A DNA stretch of 64,000 nucleotides from a phage. The DNA is taken from the sequence record PZ386957.1; one strand, given 5' to 3'. Below are positions 2,827 through 58,804 of the stretch, piece by piece. The notes under the pieces were generated by a model, which was given only the letters and a program-made list of their open reading frames with translations, was not told the origin of the DNA and searched no databases. The position numbers and the translations under genes are program-made. The first letter of the stretch is position 1. Every line of letters begins with the position of its first letter.

Positions 2827-4239
2827 TTAGAAAGTCATGTTATTTGCTAGCTCGTCGAGTTTTTCGCGTTTCTCGGCTTGCTGTGCGCTTTGTGGTTTAA
2901 TTTGTGCGTTCTCCTGGTCGGCGATCTGGTTTGGAACTTCATACCAACGCTGATTTCCTTTTTTCACACCAACGTTAAAGCGAGAATAATAGTTCTTATC
3001 GCCGTAACGAGATTTGATCTGCTTGAGCAGTTGAACGCCCATTTTTGCAAGGTCTTCGGTTTCAATCACACCCAACATAAAATCGGCTGTAGCCGGAAGA
3101 CCTGCGGATTCAGCGGTATCACTCATGTTAAGGTCCGATGCATCCCATCCCGCGCGAGTAGTCTGTGCCGCAGTCCAGCCAACAACATCCCACTTAACAA
3201 AAAATCCTCGCAGTTCTTCCGCAATAGCCTTAACTAGTGTGTAACTGTTTTCAGAGTATACACGCAAACGAGACGATGCGCAAATCCCCAGATAGTCAAC
3301 AATTACAACATCAGGTTTAAACTGTTTCTTGAGTCGCAATTCATTCATTAACGCCTCAAAGTGGTTGGAGTTCGCGCCACCAGTCGGATATTGCTTGATC
3401 ATCAGCTTGCCGATTGGACGTTCTCCGGCTTTCTTATTCTTAACACGTTTCATACGTGCCGAATATTCAGCAAAAGAAACATTACCATTATCCAATTCAT
3501 CTAAGGTAATGTCAAGCAAGTTTGCGTCAATACGTTTTGCTACTACGTGCTCTGCCATCTCCATTGAGATATACAGGACATTATAACCACATTCCATATA
3601 ATCGGCAGCGAGAGAACATAAGCCCAATGATTTACCAACGTTTACACCAGCAAGCAACACATTCAAGGTCTTTTTCTCTGCCCCACCTTTCGTTATTTTA
3701 TTCAGACTAGGCAGCTTAAACGGGATCTTATTCGCTTTAGTCTGATATAACAAGAATCGTTTTTCAAAGTCATTAAACCAGTCATGACCTACATCAGAAT
3801 CAAACGTAATGGATAGTGCCTCCTGCATGATCTCAGGAATAGCGCCCTCGCCTGGCAATTTCTTATTCTGTTTTTCTTTTGGTAGCTGTGCGTTCGCCTG
3901 AATCTCTAGCGCCCGTGACATTGCATTATACATAGCACGGTCACGAATAAATTTTTCTGTTTCCTTCATTAACCAATCAAGGTCTTCCGGTGTATTCTCC
4001 AAAGAATCAAGAAGAGTTTTAGCCCCTTCATATGTTGTCTGATTGCCTCTCTCCTTGTCTAAAGCAATCTGTAATGCTGTAGGGGTAGGAATATTGGAAT
4101 ATTCGTCTACATGCTTTTTAATCAGCTTATAAATCAGTTTTTCTTCGTCTTCGGTGAAGTAGTCCGCTTTAAGATGAGGCCATACATTCGTGAAGAATGT
4201 GCCATTATAAATCAACTGTGAAAAGATAGTTTTAATCAT
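2827..4239 (-). CDS. 41: replicative DNA helicase (DnaB-like, T4 gp41-like)
   Basis: 470 aa; Walker A GVNVGKS and RecA-like core; size and position match T4 gp41. Confidence 0.9.
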   Translation of the reverse strand: MIKTIFSQLIYNGTFFTNVWPHLKADYFTEDEEKLIYKLIKKHVDEYSNIPTPTALQIALDKERGNQTTYEGAKTLLDSLENTPEDLDWLMKETEKFIRDRAMYNAMSRALEIQANAQLPKEKQNKKLPGEGAIPEIMQEALSITFDSDVGHDWFNDFEKRFLLYQTKANKIPFKLPSLNKITKGGAEKKTLNVLLAGVNVGKSLGLCSLAADYMECGYNVLYISMEMAEHVVAKRIDANLLDITLDELDNGNVSFAEYSARMKRVKNKKAGERPIGKLMIKQYPTGGANSNHFEALMNELRLKKQFKPDVVIVDYLGICASSRLRVYSENSYTLVKAIAEELRGFFVKWDVVGWTAAQTTRAGWDASDLNMSDTAESAGLPATADFMLGVIETEDLAKMGVQLLKQIKSRYGDKNYYSRFNVGVKKGNQRWYEVPNQIADQENAQIKPQSAQQAEKREKLDELANNMTF

Positions 4240-35366: not shown

Positions 35367-35410
35367 CACCTAAAAACAAAAAGGCTATCCCGAAGGACAG
35401 CCCATAAAAA

Positions 35411-36229
35411 TTACACGCGAGCACCGTAGATCGTGCCAACTTTAGTCCATGTTGGGGCATTACCAGTAACAGCTTTACCAGCAGCACCACCAGGCCACGG
35501 AACACCAGCGCGACCAGTACCATCATACCATGAGTCGTTAGCCTTAGCACCTGCTTGACCAGCGTCACCACCGTTACCAGCATAATATATATTACCGTTA
35601 TACGATCCTCTACCCGGCGCGGTATATGTAGCAGCGGTTGACCCTATTTCCATGTTGGAATATGCACCAGCCGCACCATAAGGACGACCACCACCACCAC
35701 CCATTGACAACCCAATGATCGGATAATATGAGTAATAAGCACCGCCACCGCCACCGCCACCGCCAGCGATGACACCATTATTTGTGATGCGTAGACGTGT
35801 ACCGATACCATTATTGATAGCAGTCCCGCCAGCTTGTCCAGGACCAGTGCTGGAATTAGTACCGCCATCACCACCCTTACCACCACGACCCCAAACATGG
35901 ACACCTGGGTTAATGTTTAATGTAATATACTCATTAGCAAGATCGCTAGGAAAATCGAGACACGGAACACTAGCAGAATGAGAAACAATATCCCCGGTAA
36001 TGGTAATTACTACCGGAGTAGACCCGTGTGATCTTAGATAACTAATCAAAGTATCTTTATTGTAACTATGGTTAGACCCAATACTATAATAAACCTCTTT
36101 AGAACGTCCCACCATCGCACTCATCCAAGCCGGACGACCTAAGCGTACAGCTTCCATTGCGGCACTCATCCACCGTTGGCCTGTTTCATTAACGGCAGAT
36201 GATCCTACCCATCCAGAAGATATTGCCAT
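35411..36229 (-). CDS. glycine-rich protein of unknown function
   Basis: 272 aa; C-terminal half dominated by poly-Gly and GGxGG tracts (GGGGGGGGAYYSYY, MGGGGGRPYG, GNGGDAGQAG); locally GC-rich; hairpin terminator downstream. Confidence 0.6.
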   Translation of the reverse strand: MAISSGWVGSSAVNETGQRWMSAAMEAVRLGRPAWMSAMVGRSKEVYYSIGSNHSYNKDTLISYLRSHGSTPVVITITGDIVSHSASVPCLDFPSDLANEYITLNINPGVHVWGRGGKGGDGGTNSSTGPGQAGGTAINNGIGTRLRITNNGVIAGGGGGGGGAYYSYYPIIGLSMGGGGGRPYGAAGAYSNMEIGSTAATYTAPGRGSYNGNIYYAGNGGDAGQAGAKANDSWYDGTGRAGVPWPGGAAGKAVTGNAPTWTKVGTIYGARV

Positions 36230-37863: not shown

Positions 37864-40011
37864 TTATTCTCGTCCATTTGTATAGTAGTGTTTGAATCGC
37901 CCATAGCCAGTTTCAATAGACATATCTTTCTGTCGGACAATCGCCCAATAGCCATTGCATGAATCTTGCAAATACAGATCCTTACCTTTTAGGAACTCGT
38001 TAAAGATCGTAATCTGCCAATCATAATAGACGGCATCAGCGAGACTATCCATCCAACCATGTGGATCATCCATCAGTTCGACAAGCTCATCGATAACCCA
38101 ATATGGACACGGGCTAAATTTACCTTTACTAAAATCATTGAACAAGGTAACAAGTTTAACTTCCGGTCGCGGTTCATCCGGCTGCACAGGTCGTTTATTA
38201 ACCACAACCTGTACATATTTCGTATACCCGATGATTTCGCCGGAGTCAAGAGTATCGTTATTGTTCTTATCTGCATAAGCCACAAAACGATAAACACCGG
38301 AATCATTTATTGTTGCATTAGCTTTACGGTAAATCGGCACGCGAGAATCAGCAATAGGTAATTTAACACCAGCTTTGCTAAACTCATAGGTAGGTACATA
38401 ATCAGCCGGAGGCTTCAACATGGTAGCCTCAAGAACAAGCGGTTCACCTTCCGTAATCTGTACCGGATGCGGACCATCAAATTCCATATTAGGCACTACC
38501 TCAACATGGTAGGTAGCGCGTGCTGCAATATCGTAATCGGTATGCGCACTATATGGATCTTTACTCGGACTATCGCGGTATTCATGCGACCAGATACCGT
38601 TATGGTCTCGGTCTGCGGAATCAGTGATCTTATACTCTTTCGCTTCAATAGGCAAATCTGCGACTTTAACATCATTTTTCAGAATTACTAATGAACGCGT
38701 TTGAGTCGGATCACCGCTTGCTGGCGGTTCTGGATCGACGATCTTAATTACAATCGGTTCACCAATCTCAATATTACGATAATCATATTCTTTATCGTAA
38801 ATGTCAAGCATACGGCGGTCATAGAACAAAGGACGTCCGGTCGGTGTTCTCTGCGGATCATCATCACGCGCGGGAGCCACCAACAGTTGAAGTGCTACGC
38901 TATCGTCATATTGCAATTCATTAAGCGTAATGCGGTCATATCCCGGATCACCGTATTTCTTGCTTTGGAGTTGCTTACCGCCTAGCATCCACGTAAAGTA
39001 AACATTATTTGCAAGCATACCATAATGGCGGTTCCATGAGTTATCCGCTGGTAATACTGGCATATCAAAGTTTACTTCCGATCCAGAAGGATAACGAAAT
39101 TCGATTGCTGCAAAGTCATTACGGAAAAATTCGTTTTCCTTAACTTTGACAGTAAATCGGTGTCGCTGCCCTTCAATGAATGATTCACCAGCACCAGGTC
39201 CATTAACCACTTTATAGGAGCGAACGCAAGCTACATATTCACCTGCATCATTTTCGGTAGCATGTTTGGTTGCATAGAGTGTTTTGTTGGTAGACTCATA
39301 AACAAGAGTACCGTCGCCACGCTCTAAGCGATACCTTACAATGGTATGCTCTGCGTCATTAGGCGCATCATCTTCTACCGTGAAATAAGCTGGTGCATAT
39401 TTCTGGACATTGAATACTGCGGGATTTTCCTTAATATCGGCAACAAACGGATAAACAAATTTAACGTCGCCGTGTTCGTCGCTCAATTCCATTCGGTAAT
39501 TACCGGAAAATTCAGGCCATGCAAATTTTGCAATTTTAAATTCACGATGGTCTAATCCCAGATCACCATCAATGGAATCAACGAGGCCATTATTATAATA
39601 CAGGTCAACCGAAATATTAGCCGGAATATTACTACGGAAAACAATTTTTGCTTTAATTTCATCACCAATATCAAAAGACGTTGGAGGATGAACATATTCG
39701 ACAAAGACATTATCGAATAAACTAAAGGTAAAGTTTTCCGTGCCGATATCTACGGATTCGCCAGAAAAATTTTCATCATCTTGCGCATAACCACGAAGGT
39801 TAACAGACCATCCGGTTTTATCCTCTTCTTTCACTGAATCCAATACATAGGAAGGAGTTGCAGTAGTCGCAATGACCTTATTGTCTTTCTTCCACGTAAA
39901 ACCCTTTTTAGGTTTAGTTGGTTCAGGGGATTCCCCAGCAAGGGAACAAGCGAAAGTATGAGGAAGCCAAATGGTAGTATTAACGCTAGTATCTTTATTT
40001 TCTACTGGCAT
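37864..40011 (-). CDS. large protein of unknown function with Ig-like-looking repeats
   Basis: 715 aa; repeated D.G.Y.C/F-type motifs (ENDAGEYVACVRS, INDSGVYRFVAYA) suggestive of Ig-like beta-sandwich domains; no signal peptide or catalytic motif recognised. Confidence 0.65.
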   Translation of the reverse strand: MPVENKDTSVNTTIWLPHTFACSLAGESPEPTKPKKGFTWKKDNKVIATTATPSYVLDSVKEEDKTGWSVNLRGYAQDDENFSGESVDIGTENFTFSLFDNVFVEYVHPPTSFDIGDEIKAKIVFRSNIPANISVDLYYNNGLVDSIDGDLGLDHREFKIAKFAWPEFSGNYRMELSDEHGDVKFVYPFVADIKENPAVFNVQKYAPAYFTVEDDAPNDAEHTIVRYRLERGDGTLVYESTNKTLYATKHATENDAGEYVACVRSYKVVNGPGAGESFIEGQRHRFTVKVKENEFFRNDFAAIEFRYPSGSEVNFDMPVLPADNSWNRHYGMLANNVYFTWMLGGKQLQSKKYGDPGYDRITLNELQYDDSVALQLLVAPARDDDPQRTPTGRPLFYDRRMLDIYDKEYDYRNIEIGEPIVIKIVDPEPPASGDPTQTRSLVILKNDVKVADLPIEAKEYKITDSADRDHNGIWSHEYRDSPSKDPYSAHTDYDIAARATYHVEVVPNMEFDGPHPVQITEGEPLVLEATMLKPPADYVPTYEFSKAGVKLPIADSRVPIYRKANATINDSGVYRFVAYADKNNNDTLDSGEIIGYTKYVQVVVNKRPVQPDEPRPEVKLVTLFNDFSKGKFSPCPYWVIDELVELMDDPHGWMDSLADAVYYDWQITIFNEFLKGKDLYLQDSCNGYWAIVRQKDMSIETGYGRFKHYYTNGRE

Positions 40012-47540: not shown

Positions 47541-47713
47541 TCACCAATCAAATATGAAAATAGCCAAATAAACAGAAACGAGACAATTGATCCAGCAAGC
47601 AAAATAATATTAGAGAATCCGCCGTTTATCCAGTCGATCAAACAGAATATTCCAGTATAGAAACACAACCCAATTACAAAACAGACGATAAGCAACCATA
47701 GGTAAAACGCCAT
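47525..47713 (-). CDS. small membrane protein
   Basis: 62 aa, hydrophobic. Confidence 0.45.
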   Translation of the reverse strand: MAFYLWLLIVCFVIGLCFYTGIFCLIDWINGGFSNIILLAGSIVSFLFIWLFSYLIGEWDLL

Positions 47714-47774
47714 AGAAAGCCCTCCAGTGAGCTAAATTAGTGCGGGTAGTACATTCTCCTACCCGCGTTGTTAA

Positions 47775-47933
47775 TCATCGTATAGCGTGTTCTATGGCGA
47801 CTCCTACAAGGCCACTAACAACACCAGTACAGAAAGCAACTAGAGCATTCATTCGGTCTTTAGGGATCATTGCAAACAGTACAACACCCACACAGAAAGC
47901 CATCACCATTGAAGTTAACATTTGTTCCATCAT
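47775..47933 (-). CDS. small membrane protein (52 aa, not in ORF track)
   Basis: ATG immediately after the upstream stop; hydrophobic MMEQMLTSMVMAFCVGVVLFAMIP...; antisense to plus-strand ORF 47740..47955. Confidence 0.4.
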   Translation of the reverse strand: MMEQMLTSMVMAFCVGVVLFAMIPKDRMNALVAFCTGVVSGLVGVAIEHAIR

Positions 47934-47935
47934 TA

Positions 47936-48274
47936 TTACACCTTTAAAGTCATAGACGCATAAACATTAATACCAGGCCAATTGGGATCACAATTATACT
48001 CAACATCCCACAAATAAAGCGGTTTGGATGTATCAGCCAAGTTTTTAAAATCTTCTACCCACATTTCAAGGCTATAGGATGGATAAACTAGGCTATCATA
48101 TCCACCGTAACGTTGGCCTACTGGTCTGTCAGTAAAAACTACCTCAAGATCCGGTAATTCTTTTTCTAGGATAACCGCCAGCGCATAAATCAGGCGGTCT
48201 TCCTTGTTACGCTGCCGTAGGACCGTTGTCAGTTGGTTCTTCTGGTTCACTAGCAAGTACCTCCACATTTTCAC
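47936..48274 (-). CDS. hypothetical protein, start uncertain
   Basis: 112 aa ORF with non-ATG first codon; overlaps the upstream gene. Confidence 0.4.
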   Translation of the reverse strand: MKMWRYLLVNQKNQLTTVLRQRNKEDRLIYALAVILEKELPDLEVVFTDRPVGQRYGGYDSLVYPSYSLEMWVEDFKNLADTSKPLYLWDVEYNCDPNWPGINVYASMTLKV

Positions 48275-50226: not shown

Positions 50227-50412
50227 TTAGAAATATGCAATATAGTTTGCCAGTCCTACAGAGTCATCATTCGGCATTGCTTTTACTGCCAGTTCAAATC
50301 CTGCTTCAACTTTCTGTTTAGCGGATTCTTCGTTATAACCCCAGATCACCAGAATAGCTACTACGTTTTCTTTGCTTACTGCTTTCAGTGCTTTAGTGAT
50401 GCGACGTGCCAT
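50227..50412 (-). CDS. hypothetical small protein
   Basis: 61 aa; AGGAGA RBS; promoter at 50459-50487. Confidence 0.5.
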   Translation of the reverse strand: MARRITKALKAVSKENVVAILVIWGYNEESAKQKVEAGFELAVKAMPNDDSVGLANYIAYF

Positions 50413-50458: not shown

Positions 50459-50487
50459 ATTATGCTATAGACCGGATCTGGTGTCAA
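50459..50487 (-). promoter_or_regulatory. sigma70-type early promoter
   Basis: Minus strand TTGACA-17-CATAAT. Confidence 0.55.
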
Positions 50488-50514
50488 CAACTTTTTTAAA
50501 AAAATTTAGGTAAT

Positions 50515-50540
50515 AAAAAAGCCACTCCGAAGAGTGGCTT
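50515..50540 (-). terminator. rho-independent terminator
   Basis: GCCACTC-TTCGG-AGTGGC hairpin followed by a U-tract on the minus strand. Confidence 0.6.
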
Positions 50541-50542
50541 AT

Positions 50543-50690
50543 AGGGAAGGTAGCGAATCTTCCTTGTCTCCAACCTGCTAGCGGCCTAGCAAGTGAATGC
50601 TTTAGCGTACCGGATTACCCCCATACGCTGTAATAAATGCGGCTAGGTGACGTCCAAATCATTCTAACCGCGCTGTTTTTAGTTCACTAT
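50543..50690 (-). ncRNA. candidate small structured RNA (speculative)
   Basis: About 150-nt GC-rich ORF-free interval between a TATAAATA late-promoter-like element (about 50683-50690) and the terminator at 50515-50540; three predicted hairpins; no tRNA T-loop. Confidence 0.25.
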
Positions 50691-50908
50691 TATTTATATA
50701 GCTTTCTATCGCTACGTTTCCGGTCTTCTTCCTTGATACAATTAAATGCATCAAACAGACACATACCGCTGATAGTGAACATGATCAGGTTTTCGACGAT
50801 ATCCCACGTTTTAGCCCCTGTGCAGATATTCCAAACAGTCATAAAAGCAAATAGTGCAGAAGAGATCACAAGCATGATACTTGCTAAGATATAAAAAGTC
50901 ATTTTCAT
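50690..50908 (-). CDS. small membrane protein
   Basis: 72 aa, hydrophobic. Confidence 0.45.
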   Translation of the reverse strand: MKMTFYILASIMLVISSALFAFMTVWNICTGAKTWDIVENLIMFTISGMCLFDAFNCIKEEDRKRSDRKLYK

Positions 50909-51099
50909 GGTTTTACCTCAATTCTTCGATATTCATCACACATCCACGCAGTAAGCAAGAATCCCATCACATAAGCAACAAAATACGTTAATGCTTCTTC
51001 TGGTTCGGTGCTATGCGCCATCATCAGACCAGCGAGAAAGGTCTTAACAATTACATTTAAAATAATTAGCCACGCAAATAATTTCATCGTTTGCCCCAT
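50905..51099 (-). CDS. small membrane protein
   Basis: 64 aa, hydrophobic. Confidence 0.45.
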   Translation of the reverse strand: MGQTMKLFAWLIILNVIVKTFLAGLMMAHSTEPEEALTYFVAYVMGFLLTAWMCDEYRRIEVKP

Positions 51100-51308
51100 T
51101 TCGGACGAGATTTTTCAAATTTATACATTCCGTAACAATCTCGGATCATCCACGTAACAAGAGCACCAGTCAATACAGAAAGTACACAGAAAAAGTAAAA
51201 CGGTCCAGTTGCATTGTCAACATGAGCAAGCCAGGTAAAGAAAGCACATGCTAAGAACGTAAAGAACATCATAAAACACAGGAAAGCGAAATATTTTATG
51301 CTACTCAT
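51084..51308 (-). CDS. small membrane protein
   Basis: ORF track 51084..51326; start refined to ATG 51308 (MSSIKYFAFLCF). Confidence 0.45.
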   Translation of the reverse strand: MSSIKYFAFLCFMMFFTFLACAFFTWLAHVDNATGPFYFFCVLSVLTGALVTWMIRDCYGMYKFEKSRPKWGKR

Positions 51309-51411
51309 AGCGCCACCATACAACAAATCATAAGAAAGCCCAACGCAATAAGAATTGCATCAAATTTAGTGAACTCCGGTCCACCTATCAACATCATTCG
51401 TTCTATCTCGT

Positions 51412-51657
51412 TCATAGCGTACATACCCATCTGAAAGCTCCACATAAAGCGATCAGTAGACTAGGTATAAACGAGACTAAAACAAGATAACAAAAATCAT
51501 CTAAGGTAACACCGGAATAGCTACCAACTGTAATCACACCGATGATCAGACACAGAAAGAAAACAAATGCAATCAGAAACAAAGTATTGCTAAACAGTTT
51601 AGTGATCATTAGACACCCCACGACGGTCAATTTCAAAAACTTTCTTATCACCAACAA
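51412..51657 (-). CDS. small membrane protein, start uncertain
   Basis: 81 aa hydrophobic ORF overlapping the upstream gene. Confidence 0.4.
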   Translation of the reverse strand: MLVIRKFLKLTVVGCLMITKLFSNTLFLIAFVFFLCLIIGVITVGSYSGVTLDDFCYLVLVSFIPSLLIALCGAFRWVCTL

Positions 51658-52470: not shown

Positions 52471-52499
52471 ATTATGCTATAGTCGTTTATGGTTGTCAA
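52471..52499 (-). promoter_or_regulatory. sigma70-type early promoter
   Basis: Minus strand TTGACA-17-CATAAT. Confidence 0.55.
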
Positions 52500-57004: not shown

Positions 57005-58804
57005 ATGTTAATGATTAATAACTCCGTTAAATGGTTTACCGGGATTGTGGAAAACAGGGAAGATCCATTGATGTTAGGACGGTTACAGGTCCGTATTCAT
57101 GGTGTACACCCTTCATTATCCGCTCACGGTGATATACAAGGTTTACCGACCGAAGACCTGATATGGATTACTCCAGTACAAGATATTACAAGCGCGGCGA
57201 TCTCCGGTATAGGCCAAAGTCCTACTGGTATTGTTGAAGGTTCAATGGTATTTGGTTTAGCCTTAGATGAACGTTATTTGAATTGCCTTATTCTGGGGAC
57301 AATTGCAGGACAATATACAGAGCAACCATTAACAACCGAGGGATTTTGTGATCCGTCCGGTGCATATCCTCGCTATATCGGCAACGATGTTAATATTCTT
57401 GCTCGCGGCGGGGTTAATCCATCAACGGGACAAACAACAAAACCTGATAGTGTCTATATTCGAGATGAAAACACTGGAGTTGCCGTAAATCCAGACGACG
57501 AGCCATTAGACCAAATTCCGGTTGACGATAACCCAGAATACACAATAGAAAAAATGTTGCGGGGCGATGAGGGATATCGCGAGAAATGGTATCTTGATTC
57601 AGAAGGATATCCGACAATAGGCATCGGGCATTTGATCATTTATAAGAAAACCAGTGATCTGGGTATTATCAATAATGAACTTTCTAAGCTGGTAGGGCGT
57701 GAAGTTACAAACGGAAGACTTACCGCCGAAGAAGTTAGTAAAGTATTTGCTGACGATATAGAAAAGACTCGTCGTGATATGCGCAAACATCCACGAATTG
57801 CACCTGTCTATAATAAATGTAATGCCTCACGTCGTATGGCATTAGAAAATATGGCGTTTCAAATGGGTGTTGGTGGATTGGGTAAATTTAAGAATAGTCT
57901 TGCTGCAATGCTGGCGGAAGAATGGAAACAAGCCTATGATGGATTACGTCAATCTGTATGGGCTAATCAAACTCCAGGACGCTCCAGCCGTGTTTCTAAA
58001 ATTATTTTAACTGGTAACTTAGAATCATATGGCGTAATTGCTCCAAAGAAAGAGGAATCAATTTCGGATGATCCGCGAGCACGTTTAAGAAATGCCCGTA
58101 TTGCTGCCTATAAGACACAGAGAGCAGAAGAAGACCCAGAAGCACCGTTTACCCCACAAGACACACGAATCATGTTTAAAGAGCCTAAGAGTTCGTATTC
58201 TGCAAGGTATCCTTATAACCATGTGTACGAGTCAGAGAGCGGTCATATTATCGAGATTGATGATACTCCTTCTCATGAGCGATATCATCGTAAACATCCT
58301 TCTGGTACATTTGAAGAAACCAGACCGGACGGAACGAGGGTAGAAAAGATTGAAGGCGATGACTATTTGATCGTTAAACAAGGCCGGAAAGTAAACGTTA
58401 AGGGTAATTTGCAAGTTGTTGTTGAAGGTGACGCGCAAGTTTATTATATGGGTAATGTTATGCAAACCGTTGATGGTAACGTCACTGAATTTATTCGTGG
58501 CAATGTTAATCAGACCGTTGAAGGCACTGCTAACATGCATGTTGTCGGTGATGTTATCGCACAGCTTGACGCTAATTTGACGGCTAATGTCAAGGGTAAT
58601 GCTGAATTAATGATCGAGGGTAACACTACAGAGACAATTAAAGGTAACTATGATTTAACCGTTGAGGGTAATTTTAATATGACCGTCAATGGCACTAAAT
58701 CAGATCAGGTTAATGGTGACTGGTCCCGTAATTGTGGTGCAAGCGTTAAAGATATTGCATCTGGTACAGTTAAAATTGATGGTAGCCGTATTGATCTTGG
58801 GTGA
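57005..58804 (+). CDS. 5: baseplate hub/central spike with lysozyme domain (gp5)
   Basis: 599 aa; internal T4-lysozyme-like DSEGYPTIGIGHLI; C-terminal beta-helix repeats (VEGN...VKGN...). Confidence 0.9.
   Translation: MLMINNSVKWFTGIVENREDPLMLGRLQVRIHGVHPSLSAHGDIQGLPTEDLIWITPVQDITSAAISGIGQSPTGIVEGSMVFGLALDERYLNCLILGTIAGQYTEQPLTTEGFCDPSGAYPRYIGNDVNILARGGVNPSTGQTTKPDSVYIRDENTGVAVNPDDEPLDQIPVDDNPEYTIEKMLRGDEGYREKWYLDSEGYPTIGIGHLIIYKKTSDLGIINNELSKLVGREVTNGRLTAEEVSKVFADDIEKTRRDMRKHPRIAPVYNKCNASRRMALENMAFQMGVGGLGKFKNSLAAMLAEEWKQAYDGLRQSVWANQTPGRSSRVSKIILTGNLESYGVIAPKKEESISDDPRARLRNARIAAYKTQRAEEDPEAPFTPQDTRIMFKEPKSSYSARYPYNHVYESESGHIIEIDDTPSHERYHRKHPSGTFEETRPDGTRVEKIEGDDYLIVKQGRKVNVKGNLQVVVEGDAQVYYMGNVMQTVDGNVTEFIRGNVNQTVEGTANMHVVGDVIAQLDANLTANVKGNAELMIEGNTTETIKGNYDLTVEGNFNMTVNGTKSDQVNGDWSRNCGASVKDIASGTVKIDGSRIDLG

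Follow-up and report, generated by a model that had tools for sequence, protein, structure and literature searches.

A conserved, strand-specific candidate small RNA at the 3' end of the dmd operon in Krischvirus phages

What does a T4-type phage maintain between two genes when the interval is strongly structured and offers no credible open reading frame (ORF)? The question is raised by a short element downstream of dmd in sequence record PZ386957.1, of which a stretch of 64,000 nt, called the window here, was analyzed. The phage of the window is a Krischvirus, that is, an RB49-like E. coli phage of the T4 type. A preliminary description, made from the letters of the window alone, had proposed a candidate small RNA between a late-promoter-like sequence and a terminator. 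Comparison with related phages shows that the element is a previously unannotated candidate small RNA of a new family. It very probably functions as a non-coding RNA element that is strand-specific and confined to Krischvirus. Sequence comparison leaves evenly poised the narrower reading, in which a genus-specific, independent late small RNA (sRNA) of ~173 nt would be made from the minus strand in addition to an early 3' end of the dmd operon transcript.

The element matches 59 phage records in blastn searches, every one of them a Krischvirus, with identities of 95.3-98%. The neighboring genes 57A and 57B match the identical set of 59 records, so that none of the Krischvirus records lacks the element (59 of 59). 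It lies ~1.85 kb downstream of 57B. In RB49, it corresponds to an unannotated gap from RB49p118 to RB49p117, in the same operon direction as dmd. The gap between the ORFs at the element measures 278 nt, and the RB49 genome (164 kb) has just five gaps of more than 200 nt. No Krischvirus record annotates the element as an RNA: GEC-3S and G2248 show a terminator and an early promoter only at this locus, and a few records carry an automated "hypothetical protein" over part of the interval, with strand and position disagreeing between records.

Outside of Krischvirus, no homologs were found by blastn in phages, E. coli genomes and plasmids, where the matches are to generic terminator hairpins only. 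Exact-pattern scans of viral, metagenome and GTDB contigs yielded four true copies, all nearly identical, namely two new ones from metagenomes (L034 and L035) and two from viral contigs already in the set. The remaining pattern matches are chance 20-mers in metagenome-assembled genomes of Fibrobacter and Verrucomicrobiota and in two metagenome contigs. A covariance model (R1) was built from 18 sequences and scores the cognate locus, in the window as in RB49, with 245-248 bits. No paralogs are detected by it, either in the window or across the complete genome of RB49, where its weak hits elsewhere reach at most 17 bits and are 3' ends of genes with terminators. The model also finds no match in the T4 tRNA/rnaC/rnaD locus or in the 57B-linked loci of other T4-type phages.

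The predicted RNA has a length of ~173 nt and consists of a leader, four hairpins, and a terminator hairpin with a U tail (Table 1). Its start is predicted from the exact late-promoter motif TATAAATA, in keeping with the geometry of T4 late promoters, in which the motif occupies -13 to -6 (PMC1524935). The single-stranded segment CCCUAUAA directly precedes the terminator, which has been predicted independently: it is annotated in GEC-3S and G2248 and was called by TransTerm in RB49 (58720-58737, score 100). The body of the RNA (50685-50541, ~145 nt) has a GC content of 48% compared with 40% in the window, which agrees with the ~140 nt of GC-rich sequence described previously, and the canonical terminator named there is confirmed; it has a 9-bp stem, a UUCG loop and a T6 run. 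Two details change. Folding gives four hairpins in the body rather than three, and the late-promoter-like sequence on the minus strand, which turns out to be an exact TATAAATA, is found at 50698-50691 and not at 50683-50690, a shift of 8 nt. As a separate feature, the tetranucleotide CTAG occurs three times in the 173-nt RNA (50578, 50586, and 50643), in each case within a stem, against 0.31 expected (Poisson P = 0.004); it is scarce across the window, with 1.8 per kb versus 3.6 from base composition.

Table 1. Features of the candidate RNA locus in the window, with predicted signals, structures, short ORFs and adjacent elements.
Feature	Position	Strand	Remarks
Late-promoter motif TATAAATA	50691-50698	minus	Exact T4-type match; overlaps the TAT AAA TAA end of the upstream ORF
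Predicted start G50685	50685	minus	Motif at -13 to -6
5' leader GAACUAAAAACAGC	50672-50685	minus	14 nt, predicted single-stranded; a single column of alignment A3 varies (A, G or gap)
Hairpin 1	50639-50671	minus	8 + 4 bp with internal loop; from folding; 11 pairs invariant
Hairpin 2	50604-50629	minus	7-bp stem and 2-3-bp apical stem, variable loop; from folding and alignment A3
Hairpin 3	50574-50593	minus	8 bp, GCCG loop, two CTAG motifs; stem invariant in 18 distinct sequences
Linker UUGGAGACAA	50564-50573	minus	Single-stranded, invariant; holds GGAG at 50571-50568
Hairpin 4	50545-50563	minus	5 bp (GGAAG/CUUCC), 9-nt loop; invariant except for a 1-nt insertion in PHB13
Intrinsic terminator	50513-50540	minus	9-bp stem 50540-50519, UUCG loop, U6 run to 50513; canonical form
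25-aa TTG ORF	50573-50496	minus	Runs through the terminator; without a spaced Shine-Dalgarno sequence
31-aa TTG ORF	50659-50754		Overlaps the end of the upstream gene
15-aa ATG ORF			Inside hairpin 1/2
Upstream 72-aa hydrophobic ORF, RB49p118 homolog	50690-50908	minus	Last gene of the early operon with dmd
Sigma-70-type early promoter, TTGACA-17 nt-CATAAT	50459-50487	minus	Strong, near-consensus; annotated in GEC-3S; outside the RNA

The element does not code for protein. All six frames between 50690 and 50513 are interrupted by stops, in line with the preliminary description, which had seen no credible ORF, and the homologs disrupt what is left. Indels of 1-2 nt in the loop of hairpin 2 shift the frame of the 15-aa ORF in several phages, and the insertion in PHB13 together with the varying length of the T run shifts that of the 25-aa ORF, the sole ORF over hairpin 4. 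These frame-breaking indels rule out coding for both micro-ORFs. A very small protein encoded by one of the two is therefore scarcely credible, although both ORFs exist in the window and some records do call a protein over part of the interval: the longer of the two reads through the terminator and has no suitably spaced ribosome-binding sequence, and the calls contradict each other.

The element is, in addition, better conserved than its coding surroundings. Four genomes were aligned over 5 kb, with twelve neighboring genes as comparison. Only 4 of the 173 columns of the RNA are variable; three of these lie in the apex of hairpin 2, and none of the 88 columns of the 3' half varies. In the twelve genes, 8.4%, 5.2%, and 16.6% of the columns are variable at codon positions 1, 2, and 3, respectively. 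The difference is significant against third positions (Fisher p = 2e-8) as well as against all coding positions (p = 2.5e-4). Judged from these alignments, the element is under strong purifying selection. Such high conservation is the opposite of what a decaying pseudogene or neutral decay would leave behind, and it extends to the unpaired segments of the 3' half, where linkers and loops are invariant too.

Where the stems do change, they keep pairing. In alignment A3, which comprises 18 distinct sequences, the core stems of the first two hairpins contain five changed columns, and pairing persists in every one of them. In hairpin 1, a U-A pair becomes U-G in phage Brandy, with pairing retained on the minus strand only. 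In hairpin 2, A-U is replaced by G-U in two sequences and G-C by G-U in one, and a single compensatory change converts G-C into A-U (L022). The third apical pair of this hairpin is G-U, A-U, or G-C once the apex is realigned by inspection; in the alignment as given, it is G-U in 13 sequences, G-C in one, and unpaired in four. The three changes that create G-U pairs are informative on the strand, because the plus strand would have A-C mismatches at these sites. Hairpin 3 shows one sequence with a loop substitution. An outer extension predicted for hairpin 3 was dropped, as substitutions break its pairing. Altogether, pairing is retained in 99.1% of the alignment cells; one pair is compensatory, four changes are compatible with wobble pairing, and the observed scores are reached by 17-21 of 500 shuffles. 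Folding across relatives, as suggested in the preliminary description, hence gives retained pairing and one compensatory change, with a covariation score that some shuffles match.

Thermodynamic folding points to the same strand. The z-score is -5.2 for the whole RNA with its terminator and -3.1 for the body without it. The body folds with -48.7 kcal/mol on the minus strand as opposed to -41.8 kcal/mol on the plus strand (z = -1.7), a difference of 7 kcal/mol, and the reference fold of the minus strand holds four G-U pairs. Raw energy places the body in the top 0.2% of all 145-nt segments on both strands of the window; after correction for GC content, it is in about the top 1%. The body is thus strongly structured, though not uniquely so within the window. 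The most stable 145-nt fold (38151, -54 kcal/mol) lies within a 715-aa ORF (37864-40011, minus strand) for which the colinear RB49 annotation has small ORFs and a 328-nt gap but nothing of comparable length. The stretch 35376-35900 (minus strand) is locally GC-rich (52-54% compared with 40%) and includes several folds that are among the most stable of the window; a partial, terminator-like match of the covariance model is located at 35382-35406.

The signal upstream of the RNA is an 8-mer that is not enriched as such: TATAAATA occurs 3 times in the window versus 5.8 expected and 14 times in RB49 versus 14 expected. Its placement in RB49, however, is not random. All 14 exact copies are intergenic or at gene ends and face a downstream feature, and none is mid-gene or antisense. 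Eleven of the 14 are published late promoters, and at least 12 lie within 80 nt upstream of a start (chance P ~6e-13). Apart from the copy at the element, two exact sites are missing from the published list, one just upstream of uvsW (101242) and the other just upstream of the gene 31 homolog. The latter, at 126691-126698 on the minus strand (26691-26698 of L060), overlaps the TAT-AAA-TAA stop of RB49p217 and lies 42 nt upstream of the gene 31 homolog. Judging from this non-random placement, RB49 appears to reserve exact TATAAATA for promoters. The copy at the element is the only one in RB49 that leads into a structured RNA and a terminator instead of an ORF, and it is invariant in 20 of the 21 copies of the element examined (17 of the 18 distinct rows of A3). 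A late-promoter function of TATAAATA is therefore plausible from its sequence and position.

The gaps of RB49 merit a remark of their own. The largest of them, 94865-95367, contains, directly behind the major head gene 23, a published late promoter with an exact TATAAATA (94996-95003, plus strand; 44996-45003 of L059), followed by ~370 nt without an annotated ORF. This gap could harbor a second late non-coding transcript or a missed gene. The other three gaps of more than 200 nt are 97435-97847, 98805-99007, and 47675-48002 (L059, L058); two of them give weak covariance-model matches of 15-17 bits, apparently driven by terminators.

The position of the element within its operon determines what it is at the least. 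From the early promoters at 52499/52048 down to position 50540, the minus strand is free of terminator-like sites. Early operon transcripts must therefore run through the RNA to the terminator at 50540, and this forced read-through makes the element at least the 3' untranslated region (UTR) of the dmd operon mRNA, a role that the preliminary description had passed over. It had also missed that the terminator is part of a known type of cassette. In RB49 and phi1, PeSL (promoter-early stem-loop) cassettes consist of a stem-loop terminator and a consensus sigma-70-like early promoter, AT-rich upstream, between ORFs of hyperplastic regions (PMC2839356). For RB49, the terminator at 58720-58737 and the early promoter Pe:58699 were predicted by Nolan et al. 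2006; the promoter, with a score of 43.6, is the counterpart of the one in the window, which serves the next gene (50412-50227). The locus resembles these cassettes in its terminator hairpin (50540-50519), AT-rich spacer, and promoter (50487-50459), and in lying in a hyperplastic region upstream of an ORFan. The resemblance is confined to 50540-50459, and the RNA body (50685-50541) lies outside. In the PeSL cassettes, the upstream stop codon sits in the AT-rich stretch just before the promoter, whereas here ~150 nt of conserved, structured, and GC-richer RNA, absent from the PeSL papers, separate the stop codon from the stem-loop.

The genes on either side show features of their own. Between dmd (51808-51599) and the RNA lie five overlapping small hydrophobic ORFs of 46-81 aa (50690-51657, minus strand), all "hypothetical" in every record; the last one is far more variable than its neighbors, with 48 of 210 columns changed. 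The downstream 61-aa ORFan (50227-50412, minus strand) has homologs of 75-80% identity in viral contigs of ~50 kb (loci L006-L021) from a different phage type, which suggests a small cassette exchanged between unrelated phages. Since this gene occurs there in another context without the RNA, the RNA is not part of that cassette.

How these observations are best read depends on several explanations that have to be weighed against each other. The element may act in cis alone, as the 3' UTR of the early operon with dmd, without any separate functional RNA, in which case it would block 3' exonucleases, shield the message from RNase E or secure termination before the PeSL early promoter, and TATAAATA would be a by-product of the codons Tyr-Lys-stop. 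This explanation is unlikely, though several observations agree with it. Early transcripts have to end here in any event; PeSL stem-loops have been shown to act as terminators or attenuators that insulate neighboring units (PMC2839356); and the RNA can persist when the late-promoter motif is gone, as in L034, the motif being also missing from the published promoter list. Yet other PeSL junctions of the region manage with a gap of 67-110 nt and no added structured RNA, a stabilizer needs structure and not sequence whereas the 3' half is invariant in its linkers and loops as well, and RB49 has its exact TATAAATA copies at promoter positions without exception.

It is improbable, by comparison, that the element is a relic of a decayed gene or of a tRNA/stable-RNA cluster, without present function and merely carried along in a young genus. 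RB49 lacks tRNA genes, whereas T4 has eight together with rnaC/rnaD downstream of 57B, and with copies that are 95-98% identical the time for decay may have been short. A relic, however, would hardly be conserved beyond the first and third codon positions of neighboring genes or keep its core stems paired where hairpins 1 and 2 have changed, and both the tRNA searches (even at E up to 10) and the covariance model at the T4 tRNA/rnaC/rnaD locus are negative. More improbable still is an element that acts as DNA, through its inverted repeats, such as a replication origin, a recombination hotspot, or a packaging or nuclease recognition site. Such a role would fit the hyperplastic region with its PeSL-mediated recombination (PMC2839356), the three copies of the rare CTAG, and the presence of several inverted repeats. 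Against it stand the four G-U pairs of the reference fold and the three G-U-creating changes, which are A-C mismatches on the other strand or in a cruciform. The better fold of the minus strand, transcription signals that bracket the element on one strand only, and a GC-rich composition unlike that of an AT-rich unwinding element likewise speak against it.

A number of points weigh against a functional RNA with a transcript of its own. Covariation is underpowered, given that one pair alone changes on both sides, and three of the five helices (hairpins 3 and 4 and the terminator) are invariant and thus uninformative on pairing. The conservation could partly reflect recent common ancestry of closely similar copies; the flanks vary more, however. 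As no homolog exists outside the genus, comparison beyond it allows no inference. The list of 17 RB49 late promoters by Nolan et al. 2006 omits the TATAAATA of the element, the flanks of which are not T-rich and score below most random sequence on a profile derived from the 17 published sites; because this profile fails to separate true promoters from random sequence, it is uninformative. The metagenomic copy L034 (MAVA01000028.1, ~3160-3340, minus strand) has lost 13-14 nt including TATAAATA with its RNA body unchanged, so that the promoter is dispensable for keeping the element. Complementarity of the RNA to the window or to RB49 is not above chance (2 matches of at least 12 nt versus 2.3 in shuffles), which gives no antisense target there. 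The literature search turned up neither a transcript of the element nor any Krischvirus transcriptome. Separately, L034 also carries two extra A's that frameshift the C terminus of its upstream ORF.

Taken against these points, the candidate small RNA of the preliminary description is strengthened by its presence in all 59 genomes of the genus, its conservation above flanking coding sequence, its strand specificity, and its retained pairing, while its covariation is weak. Its late-promoter-like sequence is plausible as such: the match is exact and shared with promoter positions throughout RB49, and it is the omission from the published list and the loss in L034 that count against it.

Comparison with known RNAs supports a new family. 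The absence of a tRNA-like T-loop noted previously is borne out, as ARAGORN finds 0 tRNA genes in the window and the Rfam tRNA clan gives no match between 50300 and 50900 at E up to 10. A short likeness of the RNA to E. coli tRNA-Asp (GGUUAGAAU and GUCAC) would favor a relic; by our estimate, however, a 9-mer match to some tRNA is expected by chance. A scan with Rfam 15, likewise proposed at the outset, returns no family at its gathering threshold in the window. Sub-threshold scores were obtained for RNAI, EF3314_EF3315, and STnc100 with 20-23 bits versus gathering thresholds of 47-100; the top sub-threshold score of the scan is 24 bits versus 54. These RNAs resemble the candidate in being a series of hairpins that ends in a terminator. 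Homology to them was rejected, since the alignments are driven by the terminator hairpin. A RegB/S1 site was considered and rejected as well: the rule, derived from T4, calls for a single-stranded 11-nt GGAGRAYARAA with C very rare at positions 5-6, whereas GGAGACAAGGA (50571-50561) carries a C at position 6 and departs from the consensus at positions 7 and 10 too. With a diverged RegB in RB49, the rules from T4 may hold there only in part.

In position and timing, RNAC and RNAD of T4 come closest, though they are not homologs; T4 makes these two late small RNAs in a comparable region downstream of 57B. Like the candidate, both are small and non-coding and lie, on the strand of the early genes, in the variable stretch that follows 57A/57B; they measure 119-139 nt compared with the ~173 nt predicted here and are found ~2.8 kb from 57B as opposed to ~1.85 kb. 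The genes between 57B and the RNA are not homologous, however. T4 RNAC and RNAD accumulate late, and the parallel here is the late-promoter motif alone. T4 rnaC has a tRNA-like T arm and an acceptor-like stem and is cut out of a tRNA precursor; the candidate RNA, by contrast, has no tRNA features and is bounded by its own promoter motif and intrinsic terminator. Homology to rnaC/rnaD was rejected, with MAFFT giving scattered identities only and the covariance model remaining silent at the T4 locus. The earlier assignment to the T4 tRNA and stable RNA region thus holds for the location downstream of 57B and not for sequence or structure, be it of rnaC, rnaD, or the tRNAs. According to a 2010 review, no trans-acting regulatory RNA had been functionally characterized in T4 and the roles of RNAC and RNAD were unknown, and a 2022 study still lists both as RNAs of unknown function. 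A convergent single-nucleotide polymorphism in rnaD arose during host adaptation of a T4-like phage.

A second likeness concerns architecture. Enterobacterial sRNAs of the DapZ/MicL type share the 3' end of an mRNA, are transcribed from a promoter inside the upstream gene, and are typically Hfq-dependent. The candidate resembles such 3'-end sRNAs with an internal promoter: its promoter motif lies in the 3' end of the upstream ORF, its terminator is common with the mRNA, and it has a U tail, a single-stranded A/U-containing stretch before the terminator hairpin, and conserved unpaired segments. It differs in that the predicted promoter is a phage late promoter of the gp55 type and not one for a host sigma factor, and in its U run of just 6 nt.

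From these elements, the following course of events can be proposed for the independent late sRNA. Early in infection, the RNA would form the last ~170 nt of a polycistronic transcript of dmd and the small membrane-protein genes, that is, its 3' UTR, ending at the terminator. Late in infection, the gp55-type promoter TATAAATA in the upstream stop codon would start transcription at about G50685 and yield a discrete RNA of ~173 nt. The element most likely acts as RNA, rather than as DNA or as coding sequence. Likely contact sites are the unpaired, invariant segments of its 3' half, in linkers and loops alike (UAAAGCAUU, UUGGAGACAA, AUUCGCUAC, and CCCUAUAA), together with the terminator and U tail, a module of the kind bound by Hfq-type chaperones; we infer that the RNA would base-pair with mRNAs of phage or host, or else bind a protein. 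In its boldest form, which is doubtful, the proposal is that of a first for T4-type phages, a small regulatory RNA that has both an intrinsic terminator and a gp55-dependent late promoter of its own. Specific to the genus, made late, and acting in trans, it would pair with phage or host transcripts or decoy a host RNA-binding protein or nuclease, and would fill in RB49-type phages the niche of the tRNA/RNAC/RNAD cluster of T4.

The element belongs in the genome annotation, where it is now left blank or mis-called as a hypothetical protein. RB49-type phages are part of phage therapy collections and are genetically tractable, and the element is a clean candidate for study, being a single-copy stretch of 173 nt with defined signals at its ends, found in each isolate and conserved beyond the level of the neighboring genes. 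If expressed, it would offer a direct handle on the roles of small RNAs in infections by virulent T4-type phages. If it is a 3' UTR element only, these phages still invest conserved sequence in the 3' end of their dmd operon mRNA.

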